From Mobula hypostoma (taxonomy: Eukaryota): DNA of 64,000 nucleotides. Positions 1-59,097 of this stretch are shown here, piece by piece. Position 1 is the first letter of the stretch, and each line of letters starts with the position of its first letter. Where the stretch lies: the NCBI RefSeq assembly GCF_963921235.1, contig NC_086097.1, forward strand, positions 97,342,001 through 97,406,000. The letters run 5' to 3'. The notes below the pieces were generated by a model. That model had not been told where the DNA came from, did not search any database, and saw nothing but the letters and a program-made list of their open reading frames with translations. The position numbers were made by a program, and so were the translations under genes.

Positions 1-669
1 CAAACATTTGGCTCCAGGATCGCTGTCTTCAGAACAGATGAGACTGAAATAAAGGAAGCAGTGGGTGTATGTGGGCTAGGGAGGGGTCCACCCCTTCCCA
101 AGCAGCAGTGGTCTGAGTGTAAATCTAATTTCACACCACACACAGTTACTAGCACAACTCACAAAGCACTGGCGAAACACAGTCATTAGGCAGTATCTAT
201 GGAGGAGAATGGACAGTCAGCAATTTCAGATCACGGCTCTTTATCTGGACTGAAGTCTTCAGTGAGATGACCCCTGAAGGCACTCACTCGCATGCAGTCC
301 TTTGAAGCTAGGCAGGGACATCCACATCGGGTTAATTAGCCACTGTAAAAACAGAATTGCCCTTATTGTGTGGGTGGGTGGTAGAATCTAGTGTGTGTTG
401 ATGGGAACGTGGGGAGAACAGGACACAGGGAATATTAGTTGGGATTGAGGTTGCTCTGTGACCTGGCATAGACTTGATGTCATAAGGAAATCTGAAAATT
501 GATATGAAAATATTATCAGCCTCTTCATAGCACAACAGGGGGGAAATTAAATCCACTTTCCTCAAATTCTATAGTAAGCAAATAAAGTTACCAGACGGGG
601 AGGAAAAGGTGGAAGGTGTCAGGGAGGGATGGAAAAGAGACCCACAACTGGCAGTAGGGAAGGACTCAC

Positions 670-830
670 CGGGATAGTTTCGGCAGCCTCCAGCCGAACA
701 GCCCCTTACCCACCGCCCCTCATTGATGGACACCGTCCACTTGTGGAGCTTGTCATCGTCCAGTGCATCTGGCGTCAGGTTGCAGATCTCCAGCTTTGTG
801 TAGTTCCTCTTGAAATCATCAAAAGCCATC
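670..830 (-). CDS. CAPN3: Calpain-3 exon (exon 10 equivalent); gene continues beyond the window start
   Basis: gtttgcag|GATGGCT...TATCCCG|gtgagt; 161 bp; [53 protein letters not shown]. Confidence 0.97.
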
Positions 831-2605
831 CTGCAAACAGCAACAGAGAGGAGGTGTTGTGTTCCATCCAGTAGCCCACTGCTCATCGGGATTCTTGTTA
901 TGAGGCATTGAATGATTAAAGCCTGAGTCAGGTTTAATTTGTTCATGTCTGACTGGGCTGGGAAGGGACGGGAACACCAAACAAAATTAGAAAGTGAAGC
1001 CTGTGGTTGTTGCATTTCCTCCCACTGCCCCTGGCCACGCCTCTGGTGCACTCCAATATTCTCAAACTAACTTACTGCTAATTGGTTCATTAATGTCAAG
1101 CGTACCAAGACACAGAGAATATATGCACCAAGTGGCAGTTTCTCCTGAAGATAATAACCAAACATAAGTATGCCAAGGCATATAAAGGGAATAACTGAAT
1201 GCAGACTATAATGTTACAGATTACAGAGAAAATGCAGTGCAGCCAGACAATAAGGAGCCAGGGCCATGATGAGGTAGATTGATTGATCAGTAGTTTATCT
1301 TCATCATACAAGAGGTCTGTTCAGGAACGTTATAGCAGTGTAATAGAAGCTGTCCTTGAACCTGGTGGTGTGTATTTTCTGGCTTTGATATTTTCTGACC
1401 ATTAGGAGGAGGAAGAAGAGAGAATGATCTGCATGGGGGGGTGGTCCTTGATTATGTTATACTCCTGTTCCCAAAGCAATTACCTACATTAGGACGCCGT
1501 GGTGCCGCAGTTGGTTCTGTGACCTGACGGCTCCAGAGACACAGGTTCAATGTTGAGTTCCGACGTTGTCTTTGCGTGCTCGCTACATGATTGGCCACAT
1601 TTACTCTGGTTTCCTCCCTCACCCTTATTGGAATAAAGAATCAGGGGATACTCGATGGGCATGTGAGACAAAGCAAGATGTAAGGCTACAGGGAGACAGG
1701 GTGGGGAAGAGAACAATGGGGATTTCTCTGCTGCGTGCCGACAGATGGACTGAATGGTCTCATTCTGTGTCATAATAAATAGGAAAGACCCGAGGCAGCA
1801 AGCAAAAGGTCCACCAACTTATACAAACCACAGATTTCTCACTAACTAGGCCATTCAGTCCATCAAGTCTATACTGTCTCTCAGATCACATTCCCTATCA
1901 TCCTCTTCAACTCCACTTCAATTGTCTTGGCACTCACCTGTGCCCCAGGAAATTTACAGTGACCAGTTAATCTACCAATCTACATGTCTCTGGGATATGG
2001 AAGGAATCCAGAGCAACTGGCTGAAGCCCACACAAAAACGGAGGGAACATGCAAACCCCACACAGACAACACCCAGAGTCAGGTTCAAGCCTGGGTTCTG
2101 GAGCTTTGAGGCAGCAGCATTACCTGCTGTGCCACTGTGCCCCACTCTTCCTTGTAACCTGGACTTCCGAACACCTGCGGAGGCCGTACAGGGGTCCCCA
2201 GTTCTCCAGGCTTCAGGCCCTTCTCCCTGCTAGGTACCCGCCTCACTGCCCTTGGTATTGTGGGACTAGGCAAAGACCTCTTGCTGTAGTAATCTCAGGG
2301 AATCATCCACCCGTGAGTGAAGATGGTAGCTTCAAAGGACTGCTTAATCACATGGACGTCTTCAAGAAGGAGGAGCCAGTGGCCGGCAGAACCAGCAATG
2401 GGAAACAGTGAAATCAACCAATTTTTCAGCTTCCTTAGAGACCCACTTCAGCTGCATCTCCAAGAAGCCCAGTGTTTTATTCTGAAATTAGGCTTTCCAA
2501 TTCTATGCTGTCAAGCTATTTTAGGTCGGGCTGTACGAAGGGGATGTGAGCAGTATTGATAAGACAGAGTGTTTGAACATCAGGCAACGGGGCTTTTATC
2601 CTCAC

Positions 2606-2683
2606 CAAAACTCTCCATCATCTTTCATTTGATGTTGCAGCCGTTGCTTTTGCGATTTGTCAATCTCAGACCACTCCCGGGCC
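2606..2683 (-). CDS. CAPN3: Calpain-3 exon (exon 9 equivalent)
   Basis: ccattccag|GGCCCGG...TTTTG|gtgagg; 78 bp; AREWSEIDKSQKQRLQHQMKDDGEF(W). Confidence 0.95.
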
Positions 2684-3519
2684 CTGGAATGGAAGGGGAA
2701 TACCGTTATCAGACTTGGAAAATCCCACGTTCACCCTGCCTCCCTCCCAAAGGATGGAAGTCTGGAACCGCCATTGCAACATCCTGAACTCTTCACCAAC
2801 TCCTGCTAGGGAAGGGCTTCACAAACAAGATCCTGTGTCCAGCTAGTACAACCACAACTTGCAAGAAGTTACACTCCAAGATATTCCGAGGCACTTCACA
2901 AGAGCATCTTCAAATGAAATGTGCCATCACACCAAATATTAGAGGAGATACTCACTTAATGGAGAGTAATAATTATCATTCTTGTCCTGTTCCCTGCAAG
3001 CGGTCAACTATATAAAATCTGTCTTTACCCTTACTCGGTTGGGAATGTCAAGTGCAGCAGGTTCAAACGCACATTCAGGTAAGCAGCAGCGATAGGCCAC
3101 AGCCCCTCGTGTGCTCTACCCTTCAATGAGATCCTTCACCCACTTGTTTATCATAACTCTGTTTAAAAATATCAAAGACTGGTTCCACGGCCTTTGAGGA
3201 AGAGAATTCTAAAAGACCCAACCTTTTGAGACAAAGAAAAAAATTCCCTACCTTTTCTTAAAGATATATCTCCCTCTTTGAAAGTATATCCCTAGTACTG
3301 AATTCTACCACAAGAATAAATATCCCCTCCACGTCCACATATCGTATCCTCAGGGCACGATGTCTTTGAATCTAGTCCCCTTCTCATTCTTGTAAACACC
3401 AGCATACACAAGCCTAGCCTGCCCAACCTTCCCTCCGAAGTCTACTCTGGATAGCATGCCTTAGCATCCTTCCTTAAATAAGACCAGTTCAGTACACTCC
3501 ATCCATTTTCACCAACACC

Positions 3520-3740
3520 CTGCTACTGTCCGTAAGGAGTTTGTACGCTCCCCCCGTGACTGCGTAGGTTTCCTCCAGGTGCTCTGGTTTCCTCCAGCAG
3601 TCCAAAGGTGTAACAATTGGTAGGTTAATCGGTCATTGTAAATTGTACTGTGGATAGGACAGGGTTAAATCGGGGATTGCTGGGCAGTGTGGCTCGAAAG
3701 GCCAAAAGGCCCTACCCCATGCTGTACCTCAACAAATAAG
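3520..3740 (+). mobile_element. V-SINE/HE1-like tRNA-derived SINE (other copies at ~1490, ~1930, ~13215, ~18960, ~26280, ~36040, ~44400, ~51100)
   Basis: V-domain-like ggagtttgtacgctcccccgtgactgcgtaggtttcctccaggtgctctggtttcctcc. Confidence 0.65.
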
Positions 3741-6222
3741 AAAAATATAACTAAAGCACTTGAAGTGGTTTCCTCTCAATAAGTAACCAGTCTGTTAGTC
3801 TTCCTAATCACTTGCTGTACTTGTGGGAACAATGCATTCAGAAGCCTAGATCCCTCTGCAGTCTCTCACCATTTAGATAGTATGTTACCTTTTAATTTAA
3901 TGTTTTTTGGAAGAATGGACATTTCCCACAATATACTCCATTTACCAGATTCTGTCTGTATTTTTGTAGCCTCTTTATGTCTTCTTCACAACTGACTCTC
4001 TTTGTCTCAGCGTCTGAGTGTTTTACATTTGCAAAAAGAGGCAGTTTCTGTCCATCAATTGTTACATCTTACTGACCAGACAAAGACCCATTTATGCTCT
4101 TTCTCTATGTCCTGTTAGCCAGTCAGTCTCCAAATGAGTCAACATGTTAACCTTCTACATCATGAACCATTTCTTTTGACAATAACAATGGATGTGCAAA
4201 ATTATTAAATATCTTCTGGAAAATGAAGTTTAGAACATCCATCAACTTTTCTTTATTCACAACACAAAGAACTTCAATGAATTGCTTGCTCATGATTTCC
4301 TATACACAAAACCACATTAACTTTGCCAGGTCATTTTGAATGTTTCAAAGTGTCCTGCTATAACGTCCTCATAAGGAAAACTTCTAACACTTCCCAATGA
4401 CAGATGTTAAGTTAATTGGCCTGTAGTTTCCTGCTTTCTGTCTCCCTGTCTTTTCGATTAAAGGAGTTACATTTTCAGAAACACAATCAGAATAAGGTTT
4501 ATTGCCACTGACACCTCAGGCTCACATACTTCCTCCTTGAATGTAACAACGAGAAGAGGGCATATCCTGAGTGGTGTGGGTCTTTAATGATGGATGTCAC
4601 ATTTTTGAGGGATCACCTTTTGACGATCTCCTCGATGGTGGGAAGTTAATTCTGCAATCTTATCGAATTTGCGGAAATTTTGGAAAATTAAAACCAACAC
4701 AACAGCTACCTCATTAGTCAATTATTTTGAAACCTTAGAATGAAGTCCATCAAACCTGAGGTGCTTAATGTCTTGAGAAACAAACAATCAAGCCAGCAAA
4801 GTTGACCACTCACACCAATTTATCACTTGGCACAAAGACACAAGTTTTACGGAAGTTTTGGAAAGGAACTTAATTTCTTTGAGGCTTGCTAACAGAAGGA
4901 TGGTGAAGTTCAGGAATGATTCTGAACTTGAGGAATGATGATATCCAAGTTCAGTTGTACTGGGGAAATTTACAAAAGAGGACTGTGGAAAGTATGAGAG
5001 AGTCATGGGTGGATTTAAGACCAAATTAATTCAAAAATTTGCTGTCAGTGAATGCCACACTCTCTGGTACAAATTAGGACAGAACTTTGGTGAGTTCACA
5101 GAAAGTAAATGAAGGAGGTCAGACAGGAATGTTCTGTGATTTGTTCAGTGCAAAGGAAACAAGAACTTGAATGAAGATTTGATCTGCAGGTGACCTGAGG
5201 TAAGAGCAGAGCTGGGCCATGCTATAGAGGTGGAAGTCTGTCCTGGTGGTTACAGCGGTGGAGCCTACAGAATGATGGGAAGCAATACTGTCTGACTTGC
5301 TGAAGGAGATTTCTGGCCATCCAGCAATGAGTCCAATTGTCTTTAGCCAATCTGAAACAGTGGAGGGGTCACAAGAGGTGGTAGCGATATAGAGCCAGGT
5401 GTGGTCAGTGTACATGGGACATTTACTTCGTGTTTCCAACGGATGTTGATGGGAAACAAAGTGTAGATTTCAAATAGCAGGGGTCAAGAGACAGATGCTT
5501 GGGAGCACACAGAACACTGGTGTGGAAGAAGAAAAGCTATTGCTTATAAATTTCCATCAATGGCTAGATAGCTAGATATGGAACCAGCTGAACATATGAC
5601 ACTGAGGTGGAGAATAGTGTGGACAACCTTGTCAAAGGATGCAAGGAGGTCAAGAGGTATGACAAGGAGTACCTTTGTCCTTGTTTAAAGATGCAGGGTA
5701 TTAATCAAGAGGAGCTGTGTCACTTCTCTGGTGGGGTGGGAACTAGACTGGAGGGATTCAGGGCTCAAGAAAGCTAGGAGGTGACATCACATTCGAGGGT
5801 TTTAGAGAAGAAAGAGACAGTGGAGGTGGGGCAATGGTTTGGAAAGACATAAAGATCAGGATCAATGCTGTGAAAGAAATGGTGAAAACAACTAAGGAGA
5901 AGGGGAACAATATCTCAGGAACTGAATATTGACTTACACGAGGGAAGTGAAGTTGGCTGGTGATAGGGGAGATCACATGTGAGCTTCAATAGATCCTTTC
6001 CCCAAAAATATAGACAGAAACTACAAAGTTCAAAGTATTATACGTAGCCCACAGATCATCGCCATGGTTCACTGATGCCATCTTGCTCCAACTACATGGA
6101 CTAACCAAACATAAGACAGACGATCCTAGATTTTTCCTTTAACAGCCCAGGGACAACATACGAGTAAAACAAAATGGACCACAGTTACAAATCTTTACAT
6201 GATTAGAGCAAGGAAAACATAC

Positions 6223-6308
6223 TTATCACTCCAGGGCCCATTCCACTCAACCGTTCCCCATGGGTTCCTCAAACGCACCAACTTCACTTTCTGATTTCTG
6301 TGAGTGAC
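6223..6308 (-). CDS. CAPN3: Calpain-3 exon (exon 8 equivalent), contains the catalytic Asn
   Basis: gacatcag|GTCACT...GATAA|gtatgt; 86 bp; [28 protein letters not shown](K). Confidence 0.96.
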
Positions 6309-6859
6309 CTGATGTCAAAATTACCACTGTTACTTGAGGACAAAAATTAAACACGAAGACATAAACATACAGAAACGTGGAAACCTTGATGTTTACTCCG
6401 TGACTGCAACAGAGAATTTAGTCTCGAAAATGTGCCCGTATCTATGTGTAAGATTTCCTCCCAAGCATAGCCCCAATCTTATCAGAATACATGCAAGATT
6501 ATGTGGAAGTGGGTGAGAGTATAGGTGAAACCATACCCACTATCCAGGTATTAGGCTTGTATTGCATTAGTCTCCTTAGAGCTATGAGATGCAATGATGT
6601 GCAAATTATATTTTCAATATTTCCAGGTTAACTTCAGCCAAGTTTAAAGCTTGACAAGAAATTTCTGGGGTCTCTTGTGTTTTCCCAGCCTGGAAGCTCA
6701 CCCAGCGATGCCCCCCTTTTTCCTGGGTCATAGTGTAAGTAGATCTCCCTGATCTACAAAATAACTCTACTAGCATTTTCAAATAAAGCTGCCATTCTAC
6801 AAACCATATTATTCTTCATTCATACACCAGTTAAAGGACAACCCTCTGACGACTTCATA

Positions 6860-7510
6860 AATCTGGATGCATCCACCATTTCTGCTGGCAGCTTGTTCCA
6901 TACTCTTACCACCCTCTGAGTGGTCCCCTTAAACATTTCATCTTTCACCCTTAATCTATCATCTCCAGTTCTAGTCTCACCCAACCTCAGTGGAAAAAGA
7001 CAGCTTGCATTTACCCCATCTATAATCCTCAAAATTGTGTATACCCCTATCAAATCTCCCCTCATTCTCCTACGCTCAGGGAATAAAGCCCTAGCCTATA
7101 CAACCTTCCCCTATAAATGAGGTCCTCAAATCCTGGCAACTTCCTTACAAATTTTATCTGCATTCTTTCAACCTTATTGATATCCTTCCTGTCGGTAGAT
7201 GACCAAAACTGCACACAATACTCCAAATATGGCCGCACCAATATCTTATACAACTTCAACATAGCATCCTAACTCCTGTACTCAGTACCTTGATTTATGA
7301 GGGCCAATCTACCAAAAGCTCCCTTTATGATCCTATTCACCTGTGGCCTCATTTTCAGGTAAGTATGGATCAGTGTTCCCAGATCCCTTTGTTGTACCCC
7401 ACTCCTCAATGTCCTACTGCTCACTGTGTAAACCCTACCCTGATTTGTCCACCCAAAGTGCAGCACCTCACACTTGCCTGAATTAAGTTCCATCTGCCAT
7501 CTTTCCAGCT
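6860..7510 (-). mobile_element. CR1 3' fragment
   Basis: KCEVLHFG, LYKILVRPYLEYCVQFWS, RGDLIGVY. Confidence 0.85.
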
Positions 7511-8040
7511 GATCAGAGTTAAATCAAACTCTTACCTAGTAGATACCCCGACCTTAGGAATTCTCATCCCCAGAATACTGTGGAGGCTCAGTCGCTAAGT
7601 TCATTGATAGATCTTTGGATATTAAAGGAATCAAGGGATCGTGCAAGAAGGTGGAGCTGAGGGAGCAAATCAATCATGATCTCGACGAAAGGCTCAAAGT
7701 GTTGAACGGAGATTCTGGATTCTAGAGCAACACACAAATGCTCTAGGAACTCAGCAGGTCAGACAACATCAATGGAGGGAGGTGGACAGTCAATATTGCA
7801 TGCTGAGACTCGGCTCTGGACCCAAAATGCCAATTCTCCATTTTCCTCCATACATGCTGCTTGATGTATTGAGTTCCTCCTGTGTCTTACTCAGCATTCC
7901 CTATCCCCAGGTACACCCCACATGTGATCTTATACCCAACTGTTTCCTCAGAGTTACCTTAAGAACCCCATTACCAACCTGTGCCCTGAGACAATAACAT
8001 ACATGGTAAATTACTTAACGTAAAGGCTCCCACACCTTAC

Positions 8041-8124
8041 CTCGTCCACACCGGTTACTGAGTAGGCGTGACCTTTGACCAGGCCGCTGGGCAACCGCGT
8101 CTCGAACTGCAGGGGTACGAAGGA
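8041..8124 (-). CDS. CAPN3: Calpain-3 exon (exon 7 equivalent), contains the catalytic His
   Basis: tcttttgacag|TCCTTC...GACGAG|gtaagg; 84 bp; [28 protein letters not shown]. Confidence 0.96.
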
Positions 8125-8268
8125 CTGTCAAAAGAGATGTTGATCAATATGACAATACTGATGAGACAGGGCTATAGAAACAAGCTGCAAATAAACATGA
8201 GTCGTTTCACCTCCCTGAGATGTGGCATTGTTTATGACCCCTATCCAGACCAACTTCAAGAGTGTGTT

Positions 8269-9084
8269 CAAGCAACACACATAAAATTTGCTGGTGAACA
8301 CAACAGGCCAGGCAGCATGTATAGGAAGAGGTACAGTCAACACTTCGGGCCAAGACCCTTTGTCAGGGCGAACTGAAAGAAGAGATAGTAAGAGATAGTA
8401 ACGGTCTCCCAGCCTGTGTCGGGTTTCGCTGAACACCTACGCTCTGTCTGCCAGAGAAAGCAGGATCTCCCAGTAGCCACACATTTTAATTCCATATCCC
8501 ATTCCCATTCTGATATGTCTATCCACGGCCTCCTCTACTGTCAAGATGAAGCCACACTCAGGTTGGAGGAACAACACCTTATATTCCGTCTGGGTAGCCT
8601 CCAACCTGATGGCATGAACACTGACTTCTCTAACCTCCGCTGATGCCCCACCTCCCCCTTGTACCCCATCCGTTATTTATTTATATACACATTCTTTCTC
8701 TCCCTCTCCTTTTTCTCCCTCTGTCCCTCTCACTATACCCCTTGCCCATCCTCTGGGCTTCCCCCCCTCCCCCTTTTCCTTCTCCCCGGACCTCCTGTCC
8801 CATGATCCTCTCATATCCCTTTTGCCAATCACCTGTCCAGCTCTTGGCTCCATCCCTCCCCCTCCTGTCTTCTCCTATCATTTCGGATCTCCCCCTCCCC
8901 CTCCCACTTTCAAATCTCTTACTATCTCTTCTTTCAGTTAGTCCTGACGAAGGGTCTCGGCCCGAAACGTTGACTGTACCTCTTCCTAGAGATGCTGCCT
9001 GGCCTGCTGCGTTCACCAGCAACTTTTATGTGTGTTGCTTGAAATTCCAGCATCTGCAGATTTCCTCGTGTTTGCGTTTTTAAA
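8269..9084 (+). mobile_element. Penelope-like element (Neptune-type family A), 3' fragment with inverted 5' end
   Basis: GIY-YIG C-terminus (FAEHLRSV...VATHFN...LRLEEQHLIFRLGSLQPDGMN). 8269-8400 is an inverted copy of the 3' end. 14-bp TSD ttcaagagtgtgtt at 8255-8268 and 9085-9098. Confidence 0.88.
8940..8975 (+). ncRNA. Minimal type I hammerhead ribozyme motif (PLE family A), GUU cleavage triplet
   Basis: AGTC-CTGACGA-A-GGG tctcgg CCC-GAAA-CG-TT-GACT. Confidence 0.72.
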
Positions 9085-9254
9085 TTCAAGAGTGTGTTAC
9101 CAAAATACTACCTGCATATCTCCCGTGCCAGCTCTGATCCAAATACCCTAGGCCATCATCTCGTAACCATCAAACACTCTCTGCCCACACTTCGGTAAAT
9201 CGGACTATCAGGCTGTGGTCCTTCTGCCCGCATGCAAACAGAAGCTGCAGCATT

Positions 9255-11335
9255 AGGGCTCCTGTACAGAGAGTCATTCAGTGCTACATGACTGCTTTGA
9301 GTTGGTAGACTGGCCCATGGCCAAAGCTCAGTAACAGGCCGATAGGAGTATGTCACCAATCTCACGGACTTCATCAGTAAGTGTGTTGAGGACTGTGTAT
9401 GAAAGAGGACAATTCAGGTGTTCTGAAGCCAGAAGTAATGGATGACCCAGAACATCCTCTCCCTATGAAAGCTGAGGACTGCAGCATTCAAACCAGGTGG
9501 CCCTGAACTTTACAAGAAATCAGCACGTGACTTCCATAACGATATCATGGTTGCCAAGAGACAGTGCCAGTCTAAAATGGAGTCGCAGACCAGCTATGGC
9601 AGGACTTACACGCTATAACAAGCTACAAGATGAGGTCAGGCAGCATCACCGACCTCACCAACAGCGCGTCCCTTCCAATGAACTAAATGCTTTCCATGCA
9701 TTGTTTGAACTGAAGGGGGTTGGAATGTCCCCACCCACCAAGGCAGATTCCAAAGTGCCTGAACCCATCGTCACCATCGCACATCTAAGATCAGCCTTCC
9801 ACCGAGTGAGCCTGCAGGCAGCATCTGCCCCAGATGGCATTCCTGGCTCTTTCCTTAGATACTGTTCAGGTCAACTGGTGAGCGCATTTGCAAACATTTT
9901 TAACTTCTCCCAGCTTCAATATGAGGTGCCCAACTGCCTTAAGAAGACGACTATCAAACCCGGTACCTCAGAAAAACAAGTTAACATGGCTTAATGTCTA
10001 CCTCCCAGTGACTCTGACATCCACTATAAGGAAGCTTTTTGAGAGGCTGGCCATGCATGCACTAACTCCAGCCTCTCAGACAACCTCGACCCACTACAAC
10101 TCAGCTACCGTCAAAACAGCTCTACAGCAGCTGCCTCTCCCTGGCCCTGCACTCTTTCTGGAGCATATGAGAAGTAAAGATGCCTACATCTGACTGCTGT
10201 ATATGGAGTACAGCTCTGACTTCGATACAACAGTTCCAAGGAAACTCATCTCCAAACTCCAAGACCTTGGACTCATCACCTCACTTTGCAGTTGGATCCT
10301 TGACTTCCTGATCAACAGATTGCAATCAGTAACACCTTACTCAAGGCTCTCCTCAACACTGGAATGATACCACCTTCCAATATATCAACACTGGGCCCCA
10401 CAAGACAGCATCGTCAGCCTCTTACTCCAGTCCCAGTACACACACGACTGTGTGGTCATGCTCTGCTCTATCTCCATTTACAAGTTTGCAGATGACACCA
10501 CTGTAATGGGCTGTACTGTATCTCAAATAACAATGAGTCGGAGTACAGGAAGGAGCTAGAGAACCTACTAACATGGTGACTTGATGACAACCTTTTCCTC
10601 AATGTCTGCAAAACAAAAGAGCTGGTCATGGGCTTCGGGAAGGGGGGGTGCACGTGCTACTGTCTACATCCATGGCATTGACGTCAAGAGGGTTGAGCGC
10701 TATTGGTGTGAGCATGATCAATAGCTTGTCCTGGTCCATCCACGTTGAATCCCTGGCCAAGAAAGCTTACCAGCACCTCTACTTCCTCAGGAGGCTAAAT
10801 AAATTTGTCACGTCCCCGCTAACCCTCACAAACTTCTATCGATACATAATAGAATGCATTCCAACCAAATTCATCATGGCTTGGTACGGCACCTGCTCTG
10901 TCTGTGAGCACAAGAAACTGCAGAGAGTTGTGAATGCAACTCAGCTCATCATAGAAACCAGCCTTCTTGCTGCCTCAGCAAAGCAGCTGCCCTCCCAGGA
11001 CATTTTCTCTTCTCCTGCCTCCCACCAGGCAGAAAATACAAAGGTCTGAAAGCACATACTACCAGGCACAAGGAGAACTTCCACCTGACTATTATAAGGC
11101 GATTGACTGGTTTCCTCATACGAAAAGTTGGACTCTTGACTGCACGGTCTATGTTATGATCTTGCACCTTACTGTCTCTCTGCAGTGCACTTTCTATGTA
11201 ATTGTAACAAGTTATTCTGCTCTGTTTAATTGTTTTACCTTGTACAACCTTAATCCACTGTTAATCTGTATGAACAATATGTAAAACAAGTTTTTCACTG
11301 TACCTCAGTACATATGACATACTAAATACAGTAAA
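9255..11335 (+). mobile_element. Rex1/Babar-type LINE fragment, degenerate
   Basis: ASAPDGIPG, PVTLTSTIRKLFERL, YKFADDT, and the KKAYQHLYFLRRL C-terminal domain. Confidence 0.78.
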
Positions 11336-13475
11336 TTACATTACCAATGTACTTCTACCCTCTCTCCTACATCCTGCGGACTTGCAGCTTTCCAATTCCC
11401 TCTGTCGATGGGATTTCTCAGTTCAGCTCCCCAACTCAGTGAATGTGCAAATTCCACACAGACAGCGTCAGAGGTTGGGAATGGACCCAAATCCCAGGTG
11501 TGCTCTTCTTGCTCTGTCGAAGCTGCCTTTCCACTCCTGCTTACTAATGTTAACGTACATCCCCTAATGATTGACATCTCAACAGGGGTAAATCTTTGAT
11601 GAAAATCGTGTTTAATTTTCTACTTCAAGATTAAATTCCCTCTTCCTCCTCTGGACTAAGTAGAATAACTTTAGCATAGCCGAATTTTCCTCTTAACCAA
11701 CAATCCTGTCTCTGGCATTATCATACATCCTTCTTGCAACGTGGACTCGGGACTCTGCACAATTTCCCAACTGCAAACATAGTGCAAGAATAAAATAAAA
11801 ATATTAAAAAACAGCAGATCAGTCAGTTTCTGTGGAGAGAGAAATAGTTAATGTTTTCAGGTCAAAGATGTCTCATCGGAACTGGGAAACAGAAAAAAGT
11901 TTGCCCTAACCATCTCTCCCCCATCTCTCTTTCCTAGTTCAGAGAAGGGTCTTTGGCTTGAAATGTAAACTTGTTCCTCCTTCTACAGATACTGCTTGAC
12001 CTAAGGAGTATTTACAAGATTTTGTGGGTTAATTTCAGATTTCCAGCATCTGTAGTTGTTTTACATTTTCATGGTACTGGAGTGACTTTAATGATCTTCT
12101 ATGCTATGCCTAATTATCACATAAATGATCTTTTCACCTTATCCATGGATTCTTCTTCTGCTTTTCCATTGGCTAACATTTTCTCAATGGTCTCTACTTT
12201 ATCATAAATGAGTTTGACCACTCTGCCGCCGTCTGTGTTTTATCCTGCAGCCCTGATTTCACTCCAGCCACATCTCAGTTATCTCTTCCGATTATAATTT
12301 GCTTGCAAAATATTATTGTCTCCATGTTTTAAAACAAAATTATCAAACACCCCAGCAGAAGCTTCTAATGAGTTCAGAGTTATTTTGTGACAATTAGGCA
12401 CAGATTAGCGCAGATTATTATCGGCATTGTCCGCCATTTTTCACTGAGTGTGTGTGTTTTACATGGTTAGCATTGCCTAGCCTAGTCCAAAAGCTAAAGG
12501 CTTCTGATGTTATGTTGTGTGAAAAAAGATCCAGAGCAGCTGCAAGACATTAAATGGTCAAAAGTAGAGGCAAAGCAAAACTTGCTGACAGGCTTAAAGT
12601 GTCTCTGTTATACTGTTCACGCCAGAAAATGCTGTGGTTGAAATTCTTTAGATCCATTGAATTTCCACCAGCTGTGCATCAGCTCAGCGTTGATATGGTG
12701 TTGGGGTCTTCCAGATCAGGAATCTACTGCTACGCAAAATATGAAATATCCCCACTTCTTTGTTCACATCTAAAAATTGGGGTCTGCTTGTACTTTTATC
12801 TGCTTTGCAAGTCAAAAGGTTCAGGCAGTGCAAGGCAGCCCAAGCTTGGTCCTGCACAGAGTTATGGGATAAAATTCACATGTTATAAATGTTATACAGT
12901 TTGTCTGGTAAACAACTGTGGAAAAGAATCTGTCATTGTATTTATTCCACGTGAAATGGATTCTCACTGTTTAATTGGACCTGTTTATTCAGGAGAGGAT
13001 TATTCGCAATACTGTTTCAGTTTATTTAACAGGCAAAGAGTTACCCACTGTAGAATTAAAGGTAATGATTAAAGATTAGTGTTATTTGCCATGTGTAGAT
13101 CAAAACATACTGTGAAATGCAGTGCTAGTTTCAAATCAAATCAGTGAGGATTGTGCTGAGCAGCCCACAAGTTCTGCCACGCTTCCAGCGCCAACACAGC
13201 ATGTCTGCAACTTACTCATCCCAACCAGAACGTCTTTGGAATGTGGAGGAAACTGGAGCACCCGGAGGAAAGCCACACGGTCAGAGGGAGAACACACAAA
13301 TTCTTACAGACAGCAGCAGGAGCTGAACCCCAATCTTACAGCTGGCGCAGTAAGGCATTGCACTAACTGTGACGCTACCGTGCACAAATTGCGCTAAGTT
13401 CCAGAAAGGTTATCCACAAGTGTCAGTCAGCATGCACTGCAGATGCAATAATGCTTGTGTCATTCCCATACAAAC

Positions 13476-13610
13476 CCTGACTAGATGGTCCTCCACGTTC
13501 TTGCTGAGATTACCAACGTTGGCCTGAGGCACAGCGTGGCCATTTACGCGGGACAGAAACTGTTGCAGTTGTGCTTCTAACATGACCGCAGTCCCACAAA
13601 ATATACCATC
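13476..13610 (-). CDS. CAPN3: Candidate calpain-3 IS1 insertion exon (exon 6 equivalent), diverged
   Basis: aattccag|GATGGT...GTCAGG|gtttgt; 135 bp, phase 0/0, no stop codon; DGIFCGTAVMLEAQLQQFLSRVNGHAVPQANVGNLSKNVEDHLVR. Lies between exons 5 and 7; starts DG and ends R like mammalian IS1. Splice sites are weak. Confidence 0.6.
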
Positions 13611-13651
13611 CTGGAATTTGAGATATATCACACAATATCACTCAGCTTGGA

Positions 13652-13930
13652 AGCAGAGAGGAACGAGGAAGCTAAGTGCAGAGGAGGAGGAAGGAGAGGA
13701 GAGAGGGAGAGAGGAATGGTGTCGAGTGGGCCTAGAAAGAAACAGATGGATTAGAGAGGAGGAGAGAAGGAGAGAGCGTGAGAGGGCAAAGTAGGAGGGG
13801 AGAGGGAGGTAGGTTTAAGTGGGGAGGGAAGAAGAGATGAGAGAGTGAGGAAGAACAGGAGCAGAGAGGGAAGGGAGGGCAGGAAGGAAGAGAGGGAATA
13901 AGGGAAGGGGAAGGAGAAAAAGGAAAAACA
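13652..13930. repeat. Polypurine/polypyrimidine low-complexity tract
   Basis: GA-rich on +, CU-rich in the CAPN3 pre-mRNA. Confidence 0.85.
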
Positions 13931-14877
13931 AAGTCATAAAAAGGCAGCAAGATACAGATGTAAGGACAAGAGACTATCAAATATTCAACCGATGAGAGAC
14001 AAAAGCGATGGAGAACGTGATATGAGAGAGAGAACTGAACATGGCATCTAAGTAGAACAAGATAACAAAGAAATAAATGAATAGATTCTCAAGGCTGAGA
14101 CAAAGATATCACAGGCGAGGGTGACATAGAGAAACCTGGTAAGGAAGAGTTGTTGATGGGAGGAATTCTGCACTCAGTCCTGGTTTGTGACTCCAGACCT
14201 GCCAATGACTGATTAAACCTTCCCGGCTCAGCTCAACTGGGGGTCGACAATGAATACTGGTATTGCCAATGACTCCAATGTCAATCCCATAAACAACTGC
14301 CTCATTACCAACCTGAATAGCAAAAGTCAGAGATTTGGACTTCTGGCCTCACTAAATGGTTACTACCCATCGCAGTCCTGGGGTTTGGTCTATAGTATTA
14401 CCTTCTTCGCACCATGTTCAAATAGTGAAGCAGTATTTGTGACCTGGCATCAAAAAGTCACTGGCAGTGAGTGGGGGGTATGAATTTCACATGAAGTGGG
14501 TGCAGAGTCTGTAGGGCAAATCAGACAAAGTGAATGAATTGCCTCCCTGACAAACAATCTGGCAGTACTTCGCCTTAAAGCCACTGGAGGCACAAAAATG
14601 GTCCAATCTGTGAAATTTCAGTTAAGTCCAAATACAAACCCTTTCAATTCGTCTGTCCAAGGCCGGGCAAGGGGAGTGCATTGGACAAAGGCCAGATGAA
14701 TGCCGGAATTTGTGAGGGGTGTGGGGAGGGAGAGGGAACTGGATTAGGAGCAGGAAAGACAGCGGGATTGATCTGGGGTGGTGAAGGAGCAGAGGTGATC
14801 AGCTGTGCTTGATTGGGAGAGTAAGGCAGGAGGCCTGAAGATGAGATGTTGGAGGAGGAGAGGAACCAGTCGACAGC

Positions 14878-17862
14878 AGGTTGCTTGTTGGAAGTGGGAT
14901 TGGTGTTGTGGGGGGGAACAGACTGACAGCGTCCTGGTTGCAGGTGGGATTGGTGTTCGGGGTGTGGGGTGAGGGGGAACAGACAAACAGATTGCTTGTT
15001 GGAGGTGGGATTGGTGTTGTGGGTGGGGAACAGACACACAGATTACTTGTTGAAAGTGGGATTGGTGTTGTGGGGTGGGGAACAGACTGACAGATTGCTT
15101 GTTGAAGGTGGGATTGGTGTTGTGGGGGGGAACAGACTGACAGCTTCCTGGTTTCAGGTGGGATTGATGTTGTGGGTGCGGGGGGAGGGGGAACAGACAG
15201 ACAGATTGCTTGTTGGAGGTGGGATTGGTGTTGTGGGGTGGGGAAACAGACAGACAACTTGCTTGTTGGAGGTGAGATTGGTTTTGTGGGTGGGGGAACA
15301 GATAGACAGATTGCTTGTTGGAGGTGGGATTGGTGTTGTGGGTGGGGAACAGACTGACAGACTGACAGATTGCTTGTTGAAGGTGGGATTGGTGTTGTGG
15401 GGGGTAACAGACTGACAGCTTCCTTGGAGGTGGGATTGGTATTGTGGGGGGAGGGAACAGACAGACAGATTGCTTGTTGGAGGTGGGATTGGTGTTGTGG
15501 GTGGGGAAACAGACAGACAGATTGCTTGTTGGAGATGGAATTGGTTTTGTGGGGGGGAACAGATAGACAGATTGCTTGTTGCAGGTGGGATTGGTGTTGT
15601 GGGTGGGAAACAGACAGATAGATTGCTTGTTGGAGGTGGGATTGGTGTTGTGGGTGGGAAACAGACAGATAGATTGCTTGTTGGAGGTGGGATTGGTGTT
15701 GTGGTGGGGGGGAACAGACAGACAGACTGCTTGTTGGAGGTGGGATTGGTGTCGTGGGTGGGGAACAGACTGACAGATTGCTTCTTGAAGGTGGGATTGG
15801 TGTTGTGGGGGGGGAACAGACTGACAGCTTCCTGGTTTCAGGTGGGATTGATGTTCTGGGTGCAGGGGGAGGGGGAACAGACAGAGAGATTGCTTGTTGG
15901 AGGTGGGATTGGTGTTGTGGGTGGGAAACAGACAGATAGATTGCTTGTTGGAGGTGGGATTGGTGTTGTGGTGGGGGGGGAACAGACAGACAACTTGCTT
16001 GTTGGAGGTGGGATTGGTGCTGTGGGGGGGAGGAACAGACTGACAGATTGCTTGTTGGAGTTGGGATTGGTGTTGTGGATGGGGTGGGGGAACAGACAGA
16101 CAGATTGCTTGTTGGAGGTGGGATTGGTGTTGTGGGGTGGGGAAACAGACAGACAAATTGCTTGTTGGAGGTGGGATTGGTGTTGTGGGTCGAGAACAGA
16201 CAGACAGATTGCTTGTTGCAGGTGGGATTGGTGTTGTGGGTGGGTAAACAGACAGGCAGATTGCTTGTTGGTGGGATTGGTTTAGTGGGTGGGGAAACAG
16301 ACAGACAAATTGCTTGTAGGAGGTGGGATTGCTGTTGTGGGTGGGGAACAGACTGACAGCTTCCTTGGAGGTGGGATTGGTATTGTGGGGGGAGGGAACA
16401 GACAGACAGATTGCTTGTTGGAGGTGGGATTGGTGTTGTGGGTGGGGAAACAGACAGACAGATTGCTTGTTGGAGGTGGGATTCGTTTAGTCGATGGGGA
16501 AACAGACAGACAGATTGCTTGTTGGAGGTGGTATTGGTTTTGTGGTGGGGGAACAGATAGACAGATTGCTAGTTGGGGGTGGGATAGGTTTTGTGGGTGG
16601 GGAAACAGACAGATTGCTTGTTGGGAGTGGGATTGGTGTTGTGGGTGGGGGGGAACAGGCAGTTAGATTGCTTGTTGGAAGTGGGGTTGGTGTTGTGGGT
16701 GGGGTAAACAGACAGATTGTTGCAGGTGGGATTGGTGTTGGGGGGGAACAGATAGACAGATTGCTGGTTGCAGGTGGGATTGGTGTTGTGGGTGGCAGAA
16801 ACAGACAGATTGCTTGTTGGGGTGGGATTGGTGTTGTGGTGAGGGGGAACAGACAGACAGATTGCTTGTTGGAGGTGGGATTGGTGTTGTGGGTGGGGAA
16901 CAGACAGACAGGTTGCTAGTTTGGGGTGGGATTGGTTTTGTGGGTGGGGAAACAGACAGATTGCTTGTTGGGGTGGGATTGGTGTTGTGGGTGGGGGGAA
17001 TAGACAGTCAGATTGCTTGTTGGAGGTGGGATTGGTGTGGGTGTCGGGGAAGGAGACTGACAGATTGCTTGCTGGAGGTGGGATTGGTGTCGTGGGTGGG
17101 GAACAGACTGACAGTTTCCTTGTTGTAGGTGGAATTGGTGTTGTGGGTGGGGAACAGACTGACAGATCGCTTGTTGAAGGTGGGATTGGTATTGTGGGGG
17201 AGAACAGACTGACAGCTTCCTTGTTGGAGGTGGGATTGGTGCTGTTGGTGGGGGGGAACAGACAGACGGACTGCTTGTTGGAGGTGGGATTGGTGTTGTG
17301 GGGGAGAACAGACTGACAGCTTCCTTGTTGGAGGTGGGATTAGTATTGTGCGGGGAAACAGACAGACAGATTGCTTGTTGGAGGTGCGATTGGTGTTGTG
17401 GGTGGGGAACAGACTGACAGATTGCTAGTTGGAGTTGGGATTGGTGTTGTGGGTGTGGAAACAGACAGACAGACAGATTGCTTATTGGAGGTGGGATTGT
17501 TGTTGTGGGTGGGGAACACACAGACAGATTGCTTGTTGGAGGTGGGATTGGTGTTGTGGGTGTGGGGGAAACAGACAGACAGATTGCTTGTTGGAGGTGG
17601 GATTGGTGTTGTGGGTGTGGGGGAAACAGACAGACAGATTGGTTGTTGGAGGTGGGGTTGGTGTTGTGGGTGGGGTAAACAGACAGGTTGCTTGTTGGAG
17701 GTGGGGTTGGTGTTGTGGGTGTGGGGGAAACAGACAGACAGATTGCTTGTTGGAGGTGGGGTTGGTGTTGTGGGTGGGGAACAGACAGACAGATTGCTTG
17801 TTGGAGGTGGGCTTGGTGTTGTGGGTGGGTTGGGGGGGGCAAACGGGCTGACAGATTGCTTA
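14878..17862. repeat. ~3-kb G-rich minisatellite with a ~50-bp unit, roughly 55-60 copies
   Basis: Unit gattgcttgttggaggtgggattggtgttgtgggtggggaacagacagaca with variants; lies in the intron after exon 5. Confidence 0.95.
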
Positions 17863-18630
17863 GAGGCAAGAATAGACAATACTTCATTTACCATGCACGG
17901 CTCTCAGCTTGGCATGATATTGTGAAGGTGACCCACAACCCCACACATCCAAGATGCTTTCAATCCTTCAAAGTGGAACGTTGCAGAGGGAACGTCAGCA
18001 CTCCATACATCACTGATCTGGAAACGACTTCCTGGAAGTCATCAGGGAACTGAAAGCAATGATGATCTGGCACAGAAGAGATTAGATCTGGGGAAGGCCC
18101 AGCATGATCATATTGAATTTCAGGGAAGGGTCAAAGTGCTGGTGGTTCACTCTTTCTCTTATTCCTTATGTTCATATAAAATGGCCTGAGCTGAACTTCA
18201 CTTGTGAAAAAATATCAGTCTTCGATTTCATTGTGCTGGGATTGAAACAGTGTTATGTAGACCAATGTTGATGAAATAAAAGCAGAAATTATTCATCAGT
18301 TCAACCAGCATCTGTGGAGGGAGAAGCAGTATCAGCATCTCAGTTATGACATGATACTTCTAGCTGTCTCACAGTTACAGTAAGGAATTCTGTCAGAAGG
18401 GTCACCACGTCAGGAATGTTTATGAACCTAAAATAAAAACAAAACGTGCCGGAAATCCTCAGCAGGTCCATGGGAAGAGAAACAGAGTGATTGTTTCAAG
18501 CTGAAGATCCTTTGCTAGAATGCCTAGGAATTGGTAGCATGCAATTCATGTGAAGCATTAGTCAGAAGAAGGTAGGATGAATGAATGAATTTCTAACTAG
18601 GCAGAACCAGTTAGAAATTTACAAACTTAC

Positions 18631-18799
18631 ATCAATGGAGCAGGCCATGAGGGACCCTCTTTCTGTCGCCTTTTTCATTATCTTGTACATATCTTTGGGG
18701 GCTCCCCTCATCTCAAAGAACTCAGTGACTCCGCCGGTGAAATCCTCCATTGCTTCGGTTGTGTTTCCACCTTTCAGAGCCTCGTAGGATCCATGCAAC
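18631..18799 (-). CDS. CAPN3: Calpain-3 exon (exon 5 equivalent)
   Basis: attcag|GTTGCAT...ATTGAT|gtaagt; 169 bp; [56 protein letters not shown]. Confidence 0.97.
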
Positions 18800-20902: not shown

Positions 20903-22935
20903 CAGGCAGAATGTTCTGTCCTCAGCAAATACCTTGCGTTGTCCTCCATTTCCAAGCCCTCTTCTTTGGTCTGTGAGGCAGACGTCTGATCCTCATTAAG
21001 GGCCTTACTAATATCCCCCCCTGCCCACACATTAGTGAGTTCTGTGACCGCCACGGCGCCAAGCTCTTCTTCCATCGCCTCCATCTCCGAACCCATTCCT
21101 TTGGCAAGGATTCCCCACCCTGCGCTGTTGACCCTTTACCTGTCTCCAATCCTACTCCTCTTCTTGGACACCCCAGTCTGGCTCTCTGTCTACTCAGGAT
21201 CTTTTCATCCGTAATTGCCAACAAGACAGCTGGACTTGGTCACCCCTCTCTCCTCCTTGAACCTTAGCTCTTCTGAATGCACTTATCTCCACTCTCTCTG
21301 CACTGTCCCTCCATCAAAAGGCCTTAAAGCTCTCCGCTTCTTTCTCAACAAAACACCAACCAGTCCACCTCTACCCCTGCCCTCCTCCATCTGACAGAAC
21401 TGGTTTTCACCCACAATAATTTCTCCTTCAGCTCCTCCCACTTTCTCCAAATCCAAGGTGTAGCCATGGGCACCCACATGGGCCCCAGCTATGCTTGCCT
21501 TTTCATTGGCTATGTAGGACAGTCCATGTTCCAATCCTTCCCTGGTAATGCTCCCCAAATCTTCTTGTGCTTCATTGGTGGCTGTATTGGTGCTGCTTCA
21601 TGCACCCTGGCTGAGTTTATCAAGTTCATCAACTTTGCTTCCAACTTCCACCATGCCCTTAAATTCACTTGGTCCATTTCTGACACCTGTCTCCCCATTC
21701 TCAATCTCTCTGTCTTCTTCTCTGGAGACAAACTGTCTACAGATAACTTATACAAACTTCCCGATTCCCAGGGCTATCGTGACTATACTTCTTCCCACCC
21801 TGTCTCCTGTAAAAATGCTATTCCCTTTTTCAGATCCCAAGATGAGGTTGTCCTTTACGGGACATCAGAGATGTCTTCCTTCTTCAAAGAACAGGGTTTT
21901 CCTTCCTCCATTGTTGATGCTGCCCTCACCTGCATCGTCTCCATTTCCTAGGCATTAATGCTCAGCCCATCTTCGTGCTGACTTAATAGGGTTAGAGTTC
22001 CTCTTGTCCTCACTTATCACCCAATGACCCTCTGCATCCAACACATCATCCTCTGTAAATTCCTCCATCTTCAGGGATCCTACCAAGAAACACATCTTTA
22101 CCTCCCCTTCCTCACTCTCTACTTTCCACAGGGATCACTCCCTCCATGATTCCCTTGTCCAGTTGTCCCTCGCCACTAATCTCCCTCCTGGCACATGTCC
22201 CTGCAAGCGACAGAAATGCTACACCTGCCCATTCGCCTCCTCCCTCACCTCCATTCAGGTCCTTAAACAGTCCTTCCAGGTGAGGAACACTTCACCTGCA
22301 AATCTTTTGGGGTCACCTATAGTAACCCCAATGCAGTCTCATCTACAGTGGTGAGGCCTGATGTAGATTGGGGGACCACTTTGTCGAGCACCTTCACTCC
22401 ATCTGCCAAGATCGGAATTTCTTGGTAGCCAATCATTTTAATTCCTATCCCCGTTCTGCTTCCAACATGTTGGTCCATTGCCTCCTTTATTGCCACAGTG
22501 AGGCCACTCTCAGGGTGGAGGTGGAACATCACATATTCCATCTAGATAGTCTCCAACCTATGACATGGACACTGATTTCGCCTTCCGGTAATTTTTCCCC
22601 ATCCCCTTCCCTCGTCTTCAGTTCCCCACTCTGATTTCTTACATCTTCTGCTCACTTGCCTATCACCTCCCTCTGGTGTCCCCCCTTCTTCCCTTTCTCC
22701 CATGATCCACTTTCCACTTTCTTCTCCTGTCAGATTCCTTCATCGCCCTACCTCTACCTTCCCCCCACCTATCACCTTCTAGCTATCCTCCTTCCCCCCC
22801 CCACCTTTTTATTCCGGCATCTTCCCCCTTCCTTTCCAGTCCAGATGAAGGGTCTCGATCCAAGATGTCAACTGTGTATTCATTTCCATAATGCGGCCTG
22901 ACTTGCTGAGTTCCTCCAGCATTTTGTGAGTGTTG
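20903..22935 (+). mobile_element. Older Penelope-like (Neptune-type) copy with RT and GIY-YIG remnants
   Basis: GVAMGTHMGPSYACLFIG RT motif, CPCKRQKCYTC linker, GIY-YIG remnant, decayed hammerhead at ~22838-22875. 12-bp TSD ctttaatatgct at 20891-20902 and 22936-22947. Confidence 0.85.
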
Positions 22936-23410: not shown

Positions 23411-23544
23411 TTGGCATAGGCCTTCTCCAGTAGGGCACTCCAGAACTCGTTGCGCTCAGCTGATTTGGTGAATACCAGATGGTTGTTGAATGTAGGGATT
23501 CGATCATCAATGACAACATCCACCCACTCACCGAAACGCCAGAA
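23411..23544 (-). CDS. CAPN3: Calpain-3 exon (exon 4 equivalent)
   Basis: ttgcag|TTCTGG...GCCAA|gtgagt; 134 bp; [45 protein letters not shown]. Confidence 0.97.
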
Positions 23545-24352: not shown

Positions 24353-24471
24353 CTGGAAATGGAAGATCCCAGCATAGTTCTCAGTGAAGTACTGATCCCT
24401 CGGGATGACGCGGTACAGCAGTTTCTCATTGAGGGTCAGGCAAGCAATGGCTGCCAGGAACCAGCAGTCAC
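24353..24471 (-). CDS. CAPN3: Calpain-3 exon (human exon 3 equivalent), contains the catalytic Cys
   Basis: tctaatcag|GT GAC TGC TGG...TTC CAG|gtcaga; 119 bp; translates (G)[39 protein letters not shown]. The 'AAIACLTLN' string is typical of CAPN3. Not in the ORF track; read by hand. Confidence 0.97.
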
Positions 24472-46077: not shown

Positions 46078-47325
46078 ATGAAAAAGGATCTAGTGCTTTC
46101 CCCGCGTATATGACGAATAAACGCTTCTCGGTCTTCCAGCTGGGTACATGTGTCAATTTTAACTGATGTTTCGATGGCAAACTCTGCCATCTTCATCAGG
46201 GATGATGCTGGGCTTGTCTAATCCGATGGTATTTATACCCCCATCGTCCATCCCTCTTGATTGGCTAGTCCTCATCCAATCAGGTTTCCCTCTCCCACCT
46301 TACTTCCAGTTCTTATTTAGAGTGAGACCTTCATCTTTGTTAAAATTCTTTCCCTCTAGTTTTACTTCAATAGCTCCTTTCACCAGGCAGTCCCAAAAGC
46401 TGTTGGCCTGGCACAGTACATTTGTGCCCTTGCAAATGCAATGTTCTGCTACCACTGATTTCTCTGGGTAACCCAAATGGATACACCTCCTGTGCTCCTT
46501 GATGCAAGTTTCCACTGTGCGACCCATCAGGCCGATATACGCTGCTCTGTATTCACAGGGAATCCTGTAAGCACCAACCATCCTAAATCCCAGGTCATCT
46601 TTGACCCACATAAGCTGTGATTTGAGCTTCCTCATGGGTTTGTGGATGGTATTAATCTGGTATTTTTTGAAGAACCTGGTAATCCTTCCAAAATCGTGGA
46701 AATATAGGGAAGACAGTTGGTAGCGACAGGTTCCTCCTCGTTGTTAGGTTTCCTGGTTTTTCTGTTGGCCCTTTTAAGGACCCAATTGATTTCCTTCAGC
46801 TTGTAGCCATTCTGTAGGAACATCATGCACAATTGTCTTATTTCCTCGTGAAGACTCTCTGGGTCCGAAATAGATTTTGCACGGTTACTCAAAGTAGAAA
46901 GAACTGCTCCACATTGGGAGGCGGGATGGTGGCTGCTGTCACACCTCCCAACATAGAGCGGTTCTTTCTCCACGAGGAACCTGCAATGGCCATAGATTGA
47001 CTTTGAGGGCACGTAACTACTGTGCTACACCAGTGGCTTTCGGGACCGCCTGGTAAAGGAAGCCATTGAAATAAACTAGAAGGCAAAAATTTTATCAAAG
47101 ATGGAGTTCTTGCTCTAAATAAGAACTGGAATTCAATTGTAAACAAGGTGGGAGAGCAGAAACCTGATTGGGTGAAGACTAACCAATCAGAAGGGTTAGG
47201 TAATGGGGGTTATGAATACCACTGGACTAGACTTGCCCGGGCATCATCCCTGGTGAAGATGGCAGAGCTTGTCATCAAAACTCCAGTTAAAGTCGATACC
47301 CGTACGTGGGAGAAGAGTTTATTTG
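46078..47325 (-). mobile_element. Penelope-like element (Poseidon-type family B) with inverted 5' end
   Basis: RT thumb (SHHPASQ...LQNGY) and GIY-YIG (GAYRIPCEYRAAYIG...KEHRRC). ~47013-47325 is an inverted copy of ~46115-46420. 11-bp TSD acatcaccaat at 46067-46077 and 47326-47336. Confidence 0.87.
46163..46201 (-). ncRNA. Hammerhead ribozyme motif (PLE family B)
   Basis: CC-CTGATGA-A-GATGGCA gagtt TGCCATC-GAAA-CA-TC. Core and 7-bp stem II intact; stems I and III weak. Confidence 0.6.
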
Positions 47326-58199: not shown

Positions 58200-59097
58200 G
58201 TAAGGACTGCAAGAATCAGTGCTTGGGCCTTAGCCAATCATAAAACGTAGCAATGACTTGCTTGTGTTGTTATGTGAAAAATTATGATTTCAAAGTTGGC
58301 TGATGACACTAATAATGGGGAATAATGGGGAATTTGAAAAATGGGGAAAGAATTCAAAGTTCTGAGATGCAACGGGACTTGGGAGTCCTCGTACAGGATA
58401 CCCTTAAAGTTAACCTCCAGGTTGAGTCGGTAGTGAAGAAGGCGAATGCAATGTTGGCATTCATTTCTAGAGGAATAGAGTATAGGAGCAGGGATGTGAT
58501 GTTGAGGCTCTATAAGGCGCTGGTGAGACCTCACTTGGAGTACAGTGGGCAGTTTTGGTCTCCTTATTTAAGAAAGGATGTGCTGACGTTGGAGAGGGTA
58601 CAGAGAAGATTCACTAGAATGATTCCAGGAATGAGAGGGTTAACATATGAGGAACATTTGTCCGCTCTTGGACTGTATTCCTTGGAGTTTAGAAGAATGA
58701 GGAGAGACCTCATAGAAACATTTCAAATGTTGAAAGGCATGGACAGAGTGGATGTGGCAAAGTTGTTTCCCATGATGGGGGAGTCTAGTACGAGGGGGCA
58801 TGACTTCAGGATTGAAGGGCGCCCATTCAGAACAGAAATGCGAAGAAATTTTTTTAGTCAGAAGGTGGTGAATCTATGGAATTTGTTGCCACGGGCAGCA
58901 GTGGAGGCCAAGTCATTGGGTGTATTTAAGGCAGAGATTGATAGGTATCTGAGTAGCCAGGGCATCAAAGGTTATGGTGAAAAGGTGGGGGAGTGAGACG
59001 AAATAGGAGAATGGATCAACTCATGATAAAATGGCGGAGCAGACTCGATGGGCCAAATGGCCTACTTCTGCTCCTTTGTCTTATGGTGTTATGGTCT
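58200..59097 (+). mobile_element. CR1 LINE 3' end with an open 223-aa ORF2 C-terminus
   Basis: QRDLGVLV...LYKALVRPHLEYS.QFWSP...RRDLIETFQMLKG. Confidence 0.9.

Follow-up and report, generated by a model that had tools for sequence, protein, structure and literature searches.

Does the calpain-3 gene (CAPN3) of a ray contain an exon for IS1, a segment that the fish literature treats as a tetrapod feature (PMC3783371), and if so, how old is IS1? In mammals, as described in the available text of three sources (bioRxiv 2024.02.28.582628, PMC2915920 and PMC8480384), IS1 occupies the catalytic cleft, serves as an internal propeptide and receives the first cut on activation, and the available text of the first two describes it as mostly unstructured apart from a short helix at its centre. 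The journal version of the bioRxiv paper is marked as retracted, and only its background statements are used here. The question arose from a preliminary description of the window, i.e. the whole stretch of 64,000 nt that was analysed, in which a stop-free segment between exons 5 and 7 of a putative cartilaginous-fish CAPN3 was proposed to be a hidden and highly diverged IS1-like cassette exon.

The CAPN3 gene and the candidate exon

Exons 3–5 and 7–10 lie on the minus strand and are nearly letter-for-letter identical to CAPN3 of Mobula hypostoma. The top PDB match of exon 5 is human calpain-3 (E = 4e-28), the closest named relatives of this exon are CAPN3 of M. hypostoma and M. birostris, and none of the motifs for the catalytic Cys, His and Asn is disrupted. 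Calpain-3 best matches and near-identity to the M. hypostoma gene thus confirm the earlier assignment to cartilaginous-fish CAPN3. Neither exon 1 nor exon 2 was found in the window, and intron 2 is therefore longer than 39.5 kb (24472–64000 of the window). The features of the gene, in the order of transcription, are:

24353..24471, minus strand: CAPN3 exon 3, 119 nt, with the catalytic Cys motif GDCW
23411..23544, minus strand: CAPN3 exon 4, 134 nt
18631..18799, minus strand: CAPN3 exon 5, 169 nt, ending in CSID at a codon boundary and followed by gtaagt
13611..13640, minus strand: 3′ splice site of exon 6, ...atctcaaattccag, ending in ...aattccag, with a long C/T-rich tract farther upstream
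13476..13610, minus strand: CAPN3 exon 6, a cassette exon of 135 nt (45 codons, phase 0/0) and very probable orthologue of IS1, called from anatomy, an exact-border contig, orthologues and profile homology
13470..13475, minus strand: 5′ splice site of exon 6, gtttgt, off consensus at +3/+4 when compared with gtaagt at exon 5
13431..13436, minus strand: TGCATG, candidate Rbfox-type motif by sequence, starting 40 nt 3′ of exon 6
8041..8124, minus strand: CAPN3 exon 7, 84 nt, with acceptor gacag, starting at a codon boundary and carrying the catalytic His motif GHAY
6223..6308, minus strand: CAPN3 exon 8, 86 nt, with the catalytic Asn motif RNPW
2606..2683, minus strand: CAPN3 exon 9, 78 nt
670..830, minus strand: CAPN3 exon 10, 161 nt

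The exon 6 segment, read from 13610 to 13476 on the minus strand, has no stop and gives DGIFCGTAVMLEAQLQQFLSRVNGHAVPQANVGNLSKNVEDHLVR. Coordinates, borders and translation all agree with its description as a 135-nt stop-free AG/GT segment of phase 0/0 between exons 5 and 7. The donor gtttgt appears to be weak, as would fit a regulated exon. Anatomy of this kind is common here: the 10.5-kb span from exon 5 to exon 7 holds 21 stop-free phase-0 segments of 120–150 nt bordered by YAG and GT, which derive from 19 acceptors, so that outside evidence was needed for the exon call. This count would suit the reading that the segment is intronic sequence whose AG/GT borders arose by chance, as would the result of a word-indexed search with the 45-aa peptide alone, which returned no relatives among 8 candidates; P0130, to which it is most closely related, is absent from the cluster representatives.

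Orthologous inserts in cartilaginous fishes

An HMM was made from 11 shark and chimaera inserts, with no ray among them, and was scanned against 2671 six-frame segments of the window. The exon 6 segment ranked first and was the sole significant match (E = 6.4e-10, the next segment having E = 0.24). Among public CAPN3 models, an insert of 44–47 aa at the exon 5/7 junction was found in 10 of 12 shark species and in all 19 Callorhinchus proteins; the single models of Heptranchias and Rhincodon have no insert, and five shark species are represented by models of both kinds. The preliminary description had pointed to the CAPN3 of sharks, skates and chimaeras for comparison, and orthologous inserts were indeed found there at the same junction as ray exon 6, direct examples being those of Mustelus XP_078089658.1, Carcharodon XP_041070249.1 and Callorhinchus XP_007908857.2.

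The closest of these inserts comes from P0130, an unnamed skate-type protein of 785 residues on a 3230-nt contig, which clusters with Amblyraja CAPN3 and differs from it by 12 substitutions and by 46 residues inserted at the junction. The P0130 contig is single, uninterrupted and full-length, with an NS-type start, the insert and IS2, and therefore a skate splices exon 6 in. In pairwise comparisons the ray peptide scored Z = 19.3 against the skate insert, with 28 identities, Z = 10.8–15.3 against shark inserts and Z = 5.9 against the chimaera insert, and in each case none of 2000 shuffles reached the score; the shark and chimaera inserts have 14–24 identities to the ray peptide. The named batoid proteins, a subset of annotated isoforms, are all without the insert (0/14, from 8 species), and in the four Mobula proteins retrieved (P0004–P0007) CSID is joined straight to SFVP, with exon 6 skipped.

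Batoids, sharks and a chimaera have kept exon 6 in frame, at a place in the PC2 part of the protease core that follows CSID and precedes the catalytic His; included and skipped forms both exist among cartilaginous fishes. The word ‘hidden’ applies to the ray models retrieved, which omit the exon, but not to 10 shark species and Callorhinchus, where the insert is already contained in NCBI/UniRef models of the predicted proteins, although it is not labelled IS1 in the names shown.

RNA contigs over the locus

Contigs over positions 500–14500, a region with exon 5 outside it, were available from four of the six listed runs, which are presumed to be RNA. Exons 7, 8, 9 and 10 are joined over GT–AG introns in all four. 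In run X3, from a second organism that is a sister species, a 195-nt contig lies exactly on 13476–13610, with the exon at contig positions 31–165. This layout of 30 + 135 + 30 nt breaks at both splice sites and has 30 foreign letters on each side, the shape to be expected of an included exon in a 31-mer assembly graph. There is one difference from the window, at 13536 (CAC/CAT), and it is synonymous; a single change is too few for estimating a rate. Because X3 has zero depth in several unique bins of the introns, the signal is not genomic coverage. Contig depths in this run were 16.5 for the exon 6 contig and 45.6 for exons 7–10, values that are not a measure of inclusion.

At 13536 there is no depth from contigs of runs X1, X2 and X5; since records are lost to a filter and minor forms disappear from contigs, we do not take this as evidence against exon 6. 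A contig of X2 begins precisely with the first base of exon 7 (248 = 84 + 86 + 78), a branch sign that is compatible with exon 6 and with unspliced intron alike. In a contig of X5, 740 letters stand ahead of exon 10, a length that would fit exons 2–5 and 7–9 without exon 6 if exon 2 has 70 nt, which we assume from the protein and from the size of the human exon. Low-depth contigs of X1 at 12223–12767 and 13657–14490, in the introns flanking exon 6, are consistent with unspliced transcript.

Borders by chance are hardly conceivable for a segment with a contig that ends at its exact exon borders, with an orthologous insert in a full-length skate protein and with such a match to a ray-free profile. 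The segment at 13476–13610 is a real exon, and very probably the orthologue of CAPN3 exon 6/IS1. Its earlier description as a cassette exon is borne out by the X3 contig, by the orthologous inserts and by the presence of both forms in five shark species.

Homology to tetrapod IS1

With IS1 of human and mouse CAPN3 exon 6 (D268–R315), ray exon 6 shares the gene, the junction, phase 0/0, skippability and homology at the profile level; it has 45 codons compared with 48 in mammalian IS1. Pairwise comparison of the ray peptide with nine mammalian inserts was not significant (Z = −0.5 to 1.1, 5–8 identities), nor was that with the caecilian (Z = 1.6) or the coelacanth (Z = 2.1). The motif match to mammals cited in the preliminary description (DG, CGTA for YGTS, QFLSRV for ELIARM, and R) is hence not significant by itself, and the pairing of CGTA with YGTS needs a two-residue shift: HHalign pairs ray CGT with tetrapod YGT by this shift at the N-terminus, whereas MAFFT aligns the two groups unshifted. 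Against the Ambystoma insert the ray peptide reached Z = 5.8 (0/2000 shuffles), and the chimaera insert reached Z = 5.2–5.7 when compared with those of coelacanth, caecilian and bilby. Since the inserts of chimaera and sharks form a bridge of this kind, the pairwise failure between ray and mammals is attributed to divergence.

Scores of single inserts against the HMM of the other group were weak. The sarcopterygian HMM misses ray exon 6 (rank 9 of 1596 scored in the window, E = 18), and for 4 of 13 chondrichthyan inserts at most 5 of 1000 shuffles did as well; the shark HMM attained this for none of 13 sarcopterygian inserts, the best having 7 in 1000. Accordingly, the statement that the exon is too diverged for homology-based annotation is correct for a tetrapod-based search, but not for the shark-based profile that found it. 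When the 13 chondrichthyan inserts were compared with the 13 sarcopterygian ones by HHalign, the score was 22.6 over 43 columns (P = 1e-4). None of 300 column shuffles reached this score (maximum 15.0), and the best of 82 and 83 other non-overlapping CAPN3 windows scored 12.8 and 13.9, so that the profile comparison with tetrapod IS1 proposed in the preliminary description came out positive.

Column conservation was counted over 26 distinct inserts, one shorter Mustelus splice variant being left out. The first residue is D or E in all 26, column 8 is G in 24, the hydrophobic helix face is kept in 26, 24 and 26, a P in the penultimate region occurs in 23 and the final R in 24. Among 150 calpain representatives, of which the junction pattern parsed 58, the IS1 profile matched one, coelacanth CAPN3, which is itself in the profile, and in the PDB only calpain-3 chains align to the skate protein unbroken through the insert. 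In an unnamed distant calpain (P0366), ∼30 residues of unrelated sequence are inserted at this junction; the exon 5/7 loop hence tolerates independent insertions.

The likeness between the two groups might also be convergent, the cartilaginous and lobe-finned lineages having each recruited an unrelated exon of ∼46 codons in the same intron that provides a flexible cleavable loop and an amphipathic helix. Cross-group scores are weak and the N-terminal register is ambiguous, as convergence would allow; teleosts, which branch between both groups, are without the insert, and the accessible text of Ono 2010 (PMC2906292) argues that any unstructured peptide might serve. However, junction, phase and length (44–49 aa) are the same in both groups, the profile score is well over the shuffles and every other CAPN3 window, the matches fall at both insert ends and in the helix, the chimaera is linked to coelacanth, caecilian and marsupial at Z > 5, and two gains would be required instead of one gain and one loss. 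We thus regard convergence as quite improbable. Common descent is the simplest reading, because a link at the profile level goes together with identical junction, phase and length; chondrichthyan exon 6 and coelacanth/tetrapod IS1 appear to share descent, with support at that level.

Origin and loss of IS1

The insert is present in coelacanth (2/2 parsed), in three amphibians (6/6) and in many mammalian isoforms. None of 15 teleost proteins from 8 species has it, in a sample biased by how the proteins were found. In the part of Ono 2010 (PMC2906292) that was available, IS1 is reported in 7/7 tetrapods and 0/4 teleosts (Fig. S1), a set with no cartilaginous fish, and no obvious IS1 is reported in two pufferfish genomes. 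The absence of IS1 from teleost capn3, which the preliminary description had put forward, agrees with both samples. A single sturgeon model is also without the insert, a model that is flagged as unverified and is internally duplicated, and among the 150 calpain representatives no recognisable gar, bichir or lamprey CAPN3 was seen, nor did the proteins retrieved include one from bowfin or lungfish.

By parsimony, these data require one gain before the split of cartilaginous and bony fishes and a loss toward teleosts. As part of the explanation that we favour, IS1 would in all likelihood date to the last common ancestor of jawed vertebrates rather than to tetrapods, as had been suggested from the ray exon, with an insert common to chimaera, sharks, skate, coelacanth and tetrapods; teleosts probably lost the exon secondarily. 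The jawed-vertebrate ancestor is ∼450 million years old. The Mobula product in which exon 6 is skipped has its counterparts in two forms without IS1, teleost Capn3 and mammalian lens Lp82. The ray, however, possesses the exon as an option, and no IS1 exon was found in teleosts.

Possible function and regulation of the exon

Mammalian IS1 is first cut after the Tyr at its position 7, and the Tyr-Gly at positions 7–8 corresponds to Thr-Ala in the ray. Deletion of exon 6 almost abolishes intramolecular autolysis. The skate protein, rather than the Mobula isoform, was modelled with AlphaFold; a first fold on 42 sequences had a pLDDT of 47, and with 134 sequences the mean pLDDT was 86.6. In this model the insert forms a loop, a helix (259–270) and a second loop, similar to the description of human IS1, as far as an insert pLDDT of 42–57 permits the comparison. 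Foldseek confirmed the calpain fold and gave no information on the placement of IS1.

By analogy with mammals, inclusion of exon 6 would add a loop-helix-loop internal propeptide in the catalytic cleft, its cutting by the enzyme itself would give a self-activating and short-lived enzyme of the muscle type, and skipping would give a stabler, Lp82-like form. We consider it probable that the two products differ in this manner, i.e. a self-blocking and self-cleaving propeptide form against a stabler one.

In mouse, Rbfox1 promotes exon 6 inclusion, and it acts through TGCATG located 3′ of exons, according to the available text of PMC3536703, and in adult double-knockout muscle the reported Capn3 change lies in exons 15–16, not 6 (bioRxiv 257261, available part). 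Rbfox bound at the downstream TGCATG of the ray gene could likewise promote a muscle-biased inclusion. We give about even chances to inclusion being muscle-biased and promoted through this site, a view drawn from one hexamer noticed post hoc. The minus strand of the window has 22 copies of TGCATG, and the chance of at least one per 100 nt is ∼3%; no copy was found within 150 nt after exons 3, 4 and 7–10. A second copy occurs at 18538–18543 (minus strand), 88 nt downstream of exon 5.

A different view of the present function is that the ray exon, a true IS1 orthologue, has become a minor or weakened one that is rarely included and serves as an inefficient cleft-blocking propeptide. Regarding origin, this view agrees with the explanation that we favour. 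It would account for the absence of the insert from all 14 named batoid proteins when 10 of 12 shark species have it, although batoid annotations come without tissue context, for the weak donor gtttgt, and for the length of the X5 contig, which fits a transcript without exon 6 given the presumed size of exon 2. Both batoid inserts (ray and skate) have other residues in place of G8, P11 and the late P, which are retained by most other inserts, including most of those of sharks and chimaera, and in the ray peptide the hydrophobic moment is best in a window other than the helix. Nevertheless, frame, length and 28 identities have been retained between Mobula and skate, the skate insert is part of a full-length contig with an NS-type start and IS2, and the sole difference from the sister species is synonymous. 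A weakened exon is hence unlikely, though by no means negligible, in comparison with a self-cleaving propeptide as the probable product of inclusion.

Relation to the literature and implications

No statement that cartilaginous fishes have IS1 was found in the literature searched, a review alignment and its figure lying outside the search. In its available text, Macqueen and Wilcox 2014 (PMC4043111) includes sharks and never mentions IS1, and ‘IS1’ is absent from the literature found on capn3 and callorhinchus. A 2015 Data in Brief paper (PMC4773371) presents, as far as its available text goes, a vertebrate CAPN3 alignment made to show IS1 conservation; in its figure, or in the companion review of 2015–2016, elephant shark IS1 may already be present. 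The value of our result is limited in that shark and chimaera models already contain the insert and the review alignment may show IS1.

For the Mobula genome the result amounts to an annotation fix, as the four retrieved proteins miss exon 6. With a gain in jawed vertebrates and a loss in teleosts, the polarity of IS1 evolution would be reversed, which is probably under-reported and bears on how well zebrafish capn3 models the human enzyme. Moreover, natural variants of IS1 with great divergence become available, from which the important residues can be read.

More tentatively, and with less confidence than for the parts discussed above, the whole IS1 switch, consisting of an optional exon, a downstream Rbfox element and a conserved peptide (Gly-x-x-Pro, the helix face and an acidic-Pro-Arg end), might be an invention of jawed vertebrates that teleosts gave up and that is now undergoing remodelling in rays. 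If this were true, IS1 would be constrained in sequence, contrary to the published opinion that an unstructured peptide of any kind suffices, and sharks and rays, not zebrafish, would be the fish models of self-activation of this muscular-dystrophy protease, a point that would be unpublished so far.

Other features of the locus and the window

Two types of N-termini, the NS type and a lens-Lp82-like type, occur in rays and sharks (P0128, P0129, P0010 and P0169 versus P0004 and P0126), and the alternative first exon therefore predates bony vertebrates. Among chondrichthyan proteins the insert accompanies the lens-like start in 4 of 14 and other starts in 49 of 67. The first 18 nt of exon 7 (8107–8124, minus strand) hold an internal pyrimidine-rich ...cccctgcag after six codons, and a Mustelus model (P0145) has an exon 7 that is shorter at its start by just these six residues; since the two coincide, an alternative exon 7 acceptor may be shared by ray and Mustelus.

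The intron between exons 5 and 6 contains, at 14872–17829, a 3-kb tandem array with a 51/104-nt unit, ∼55 copies of 51 nt and strong GC skew. Another array, at ∼59400–60170, has a 15-nt unit and encodes NGKGM repeats in one frame. In intron 2, at ∼61050–64000 (minus strand), retrotransposon frames for reverse transcriptase, RNase H and an integrase-like domain are broken by stops, and we take them to be of Ty3/Gypsy type. Fragments at 54748–55257, 46303–46743, 22362–22631, 38492–39478 and 58316–58993 resemble, as judged by us from their translations, Penelope-type GIY-YIG elements and CR1/L2-type LINEs.
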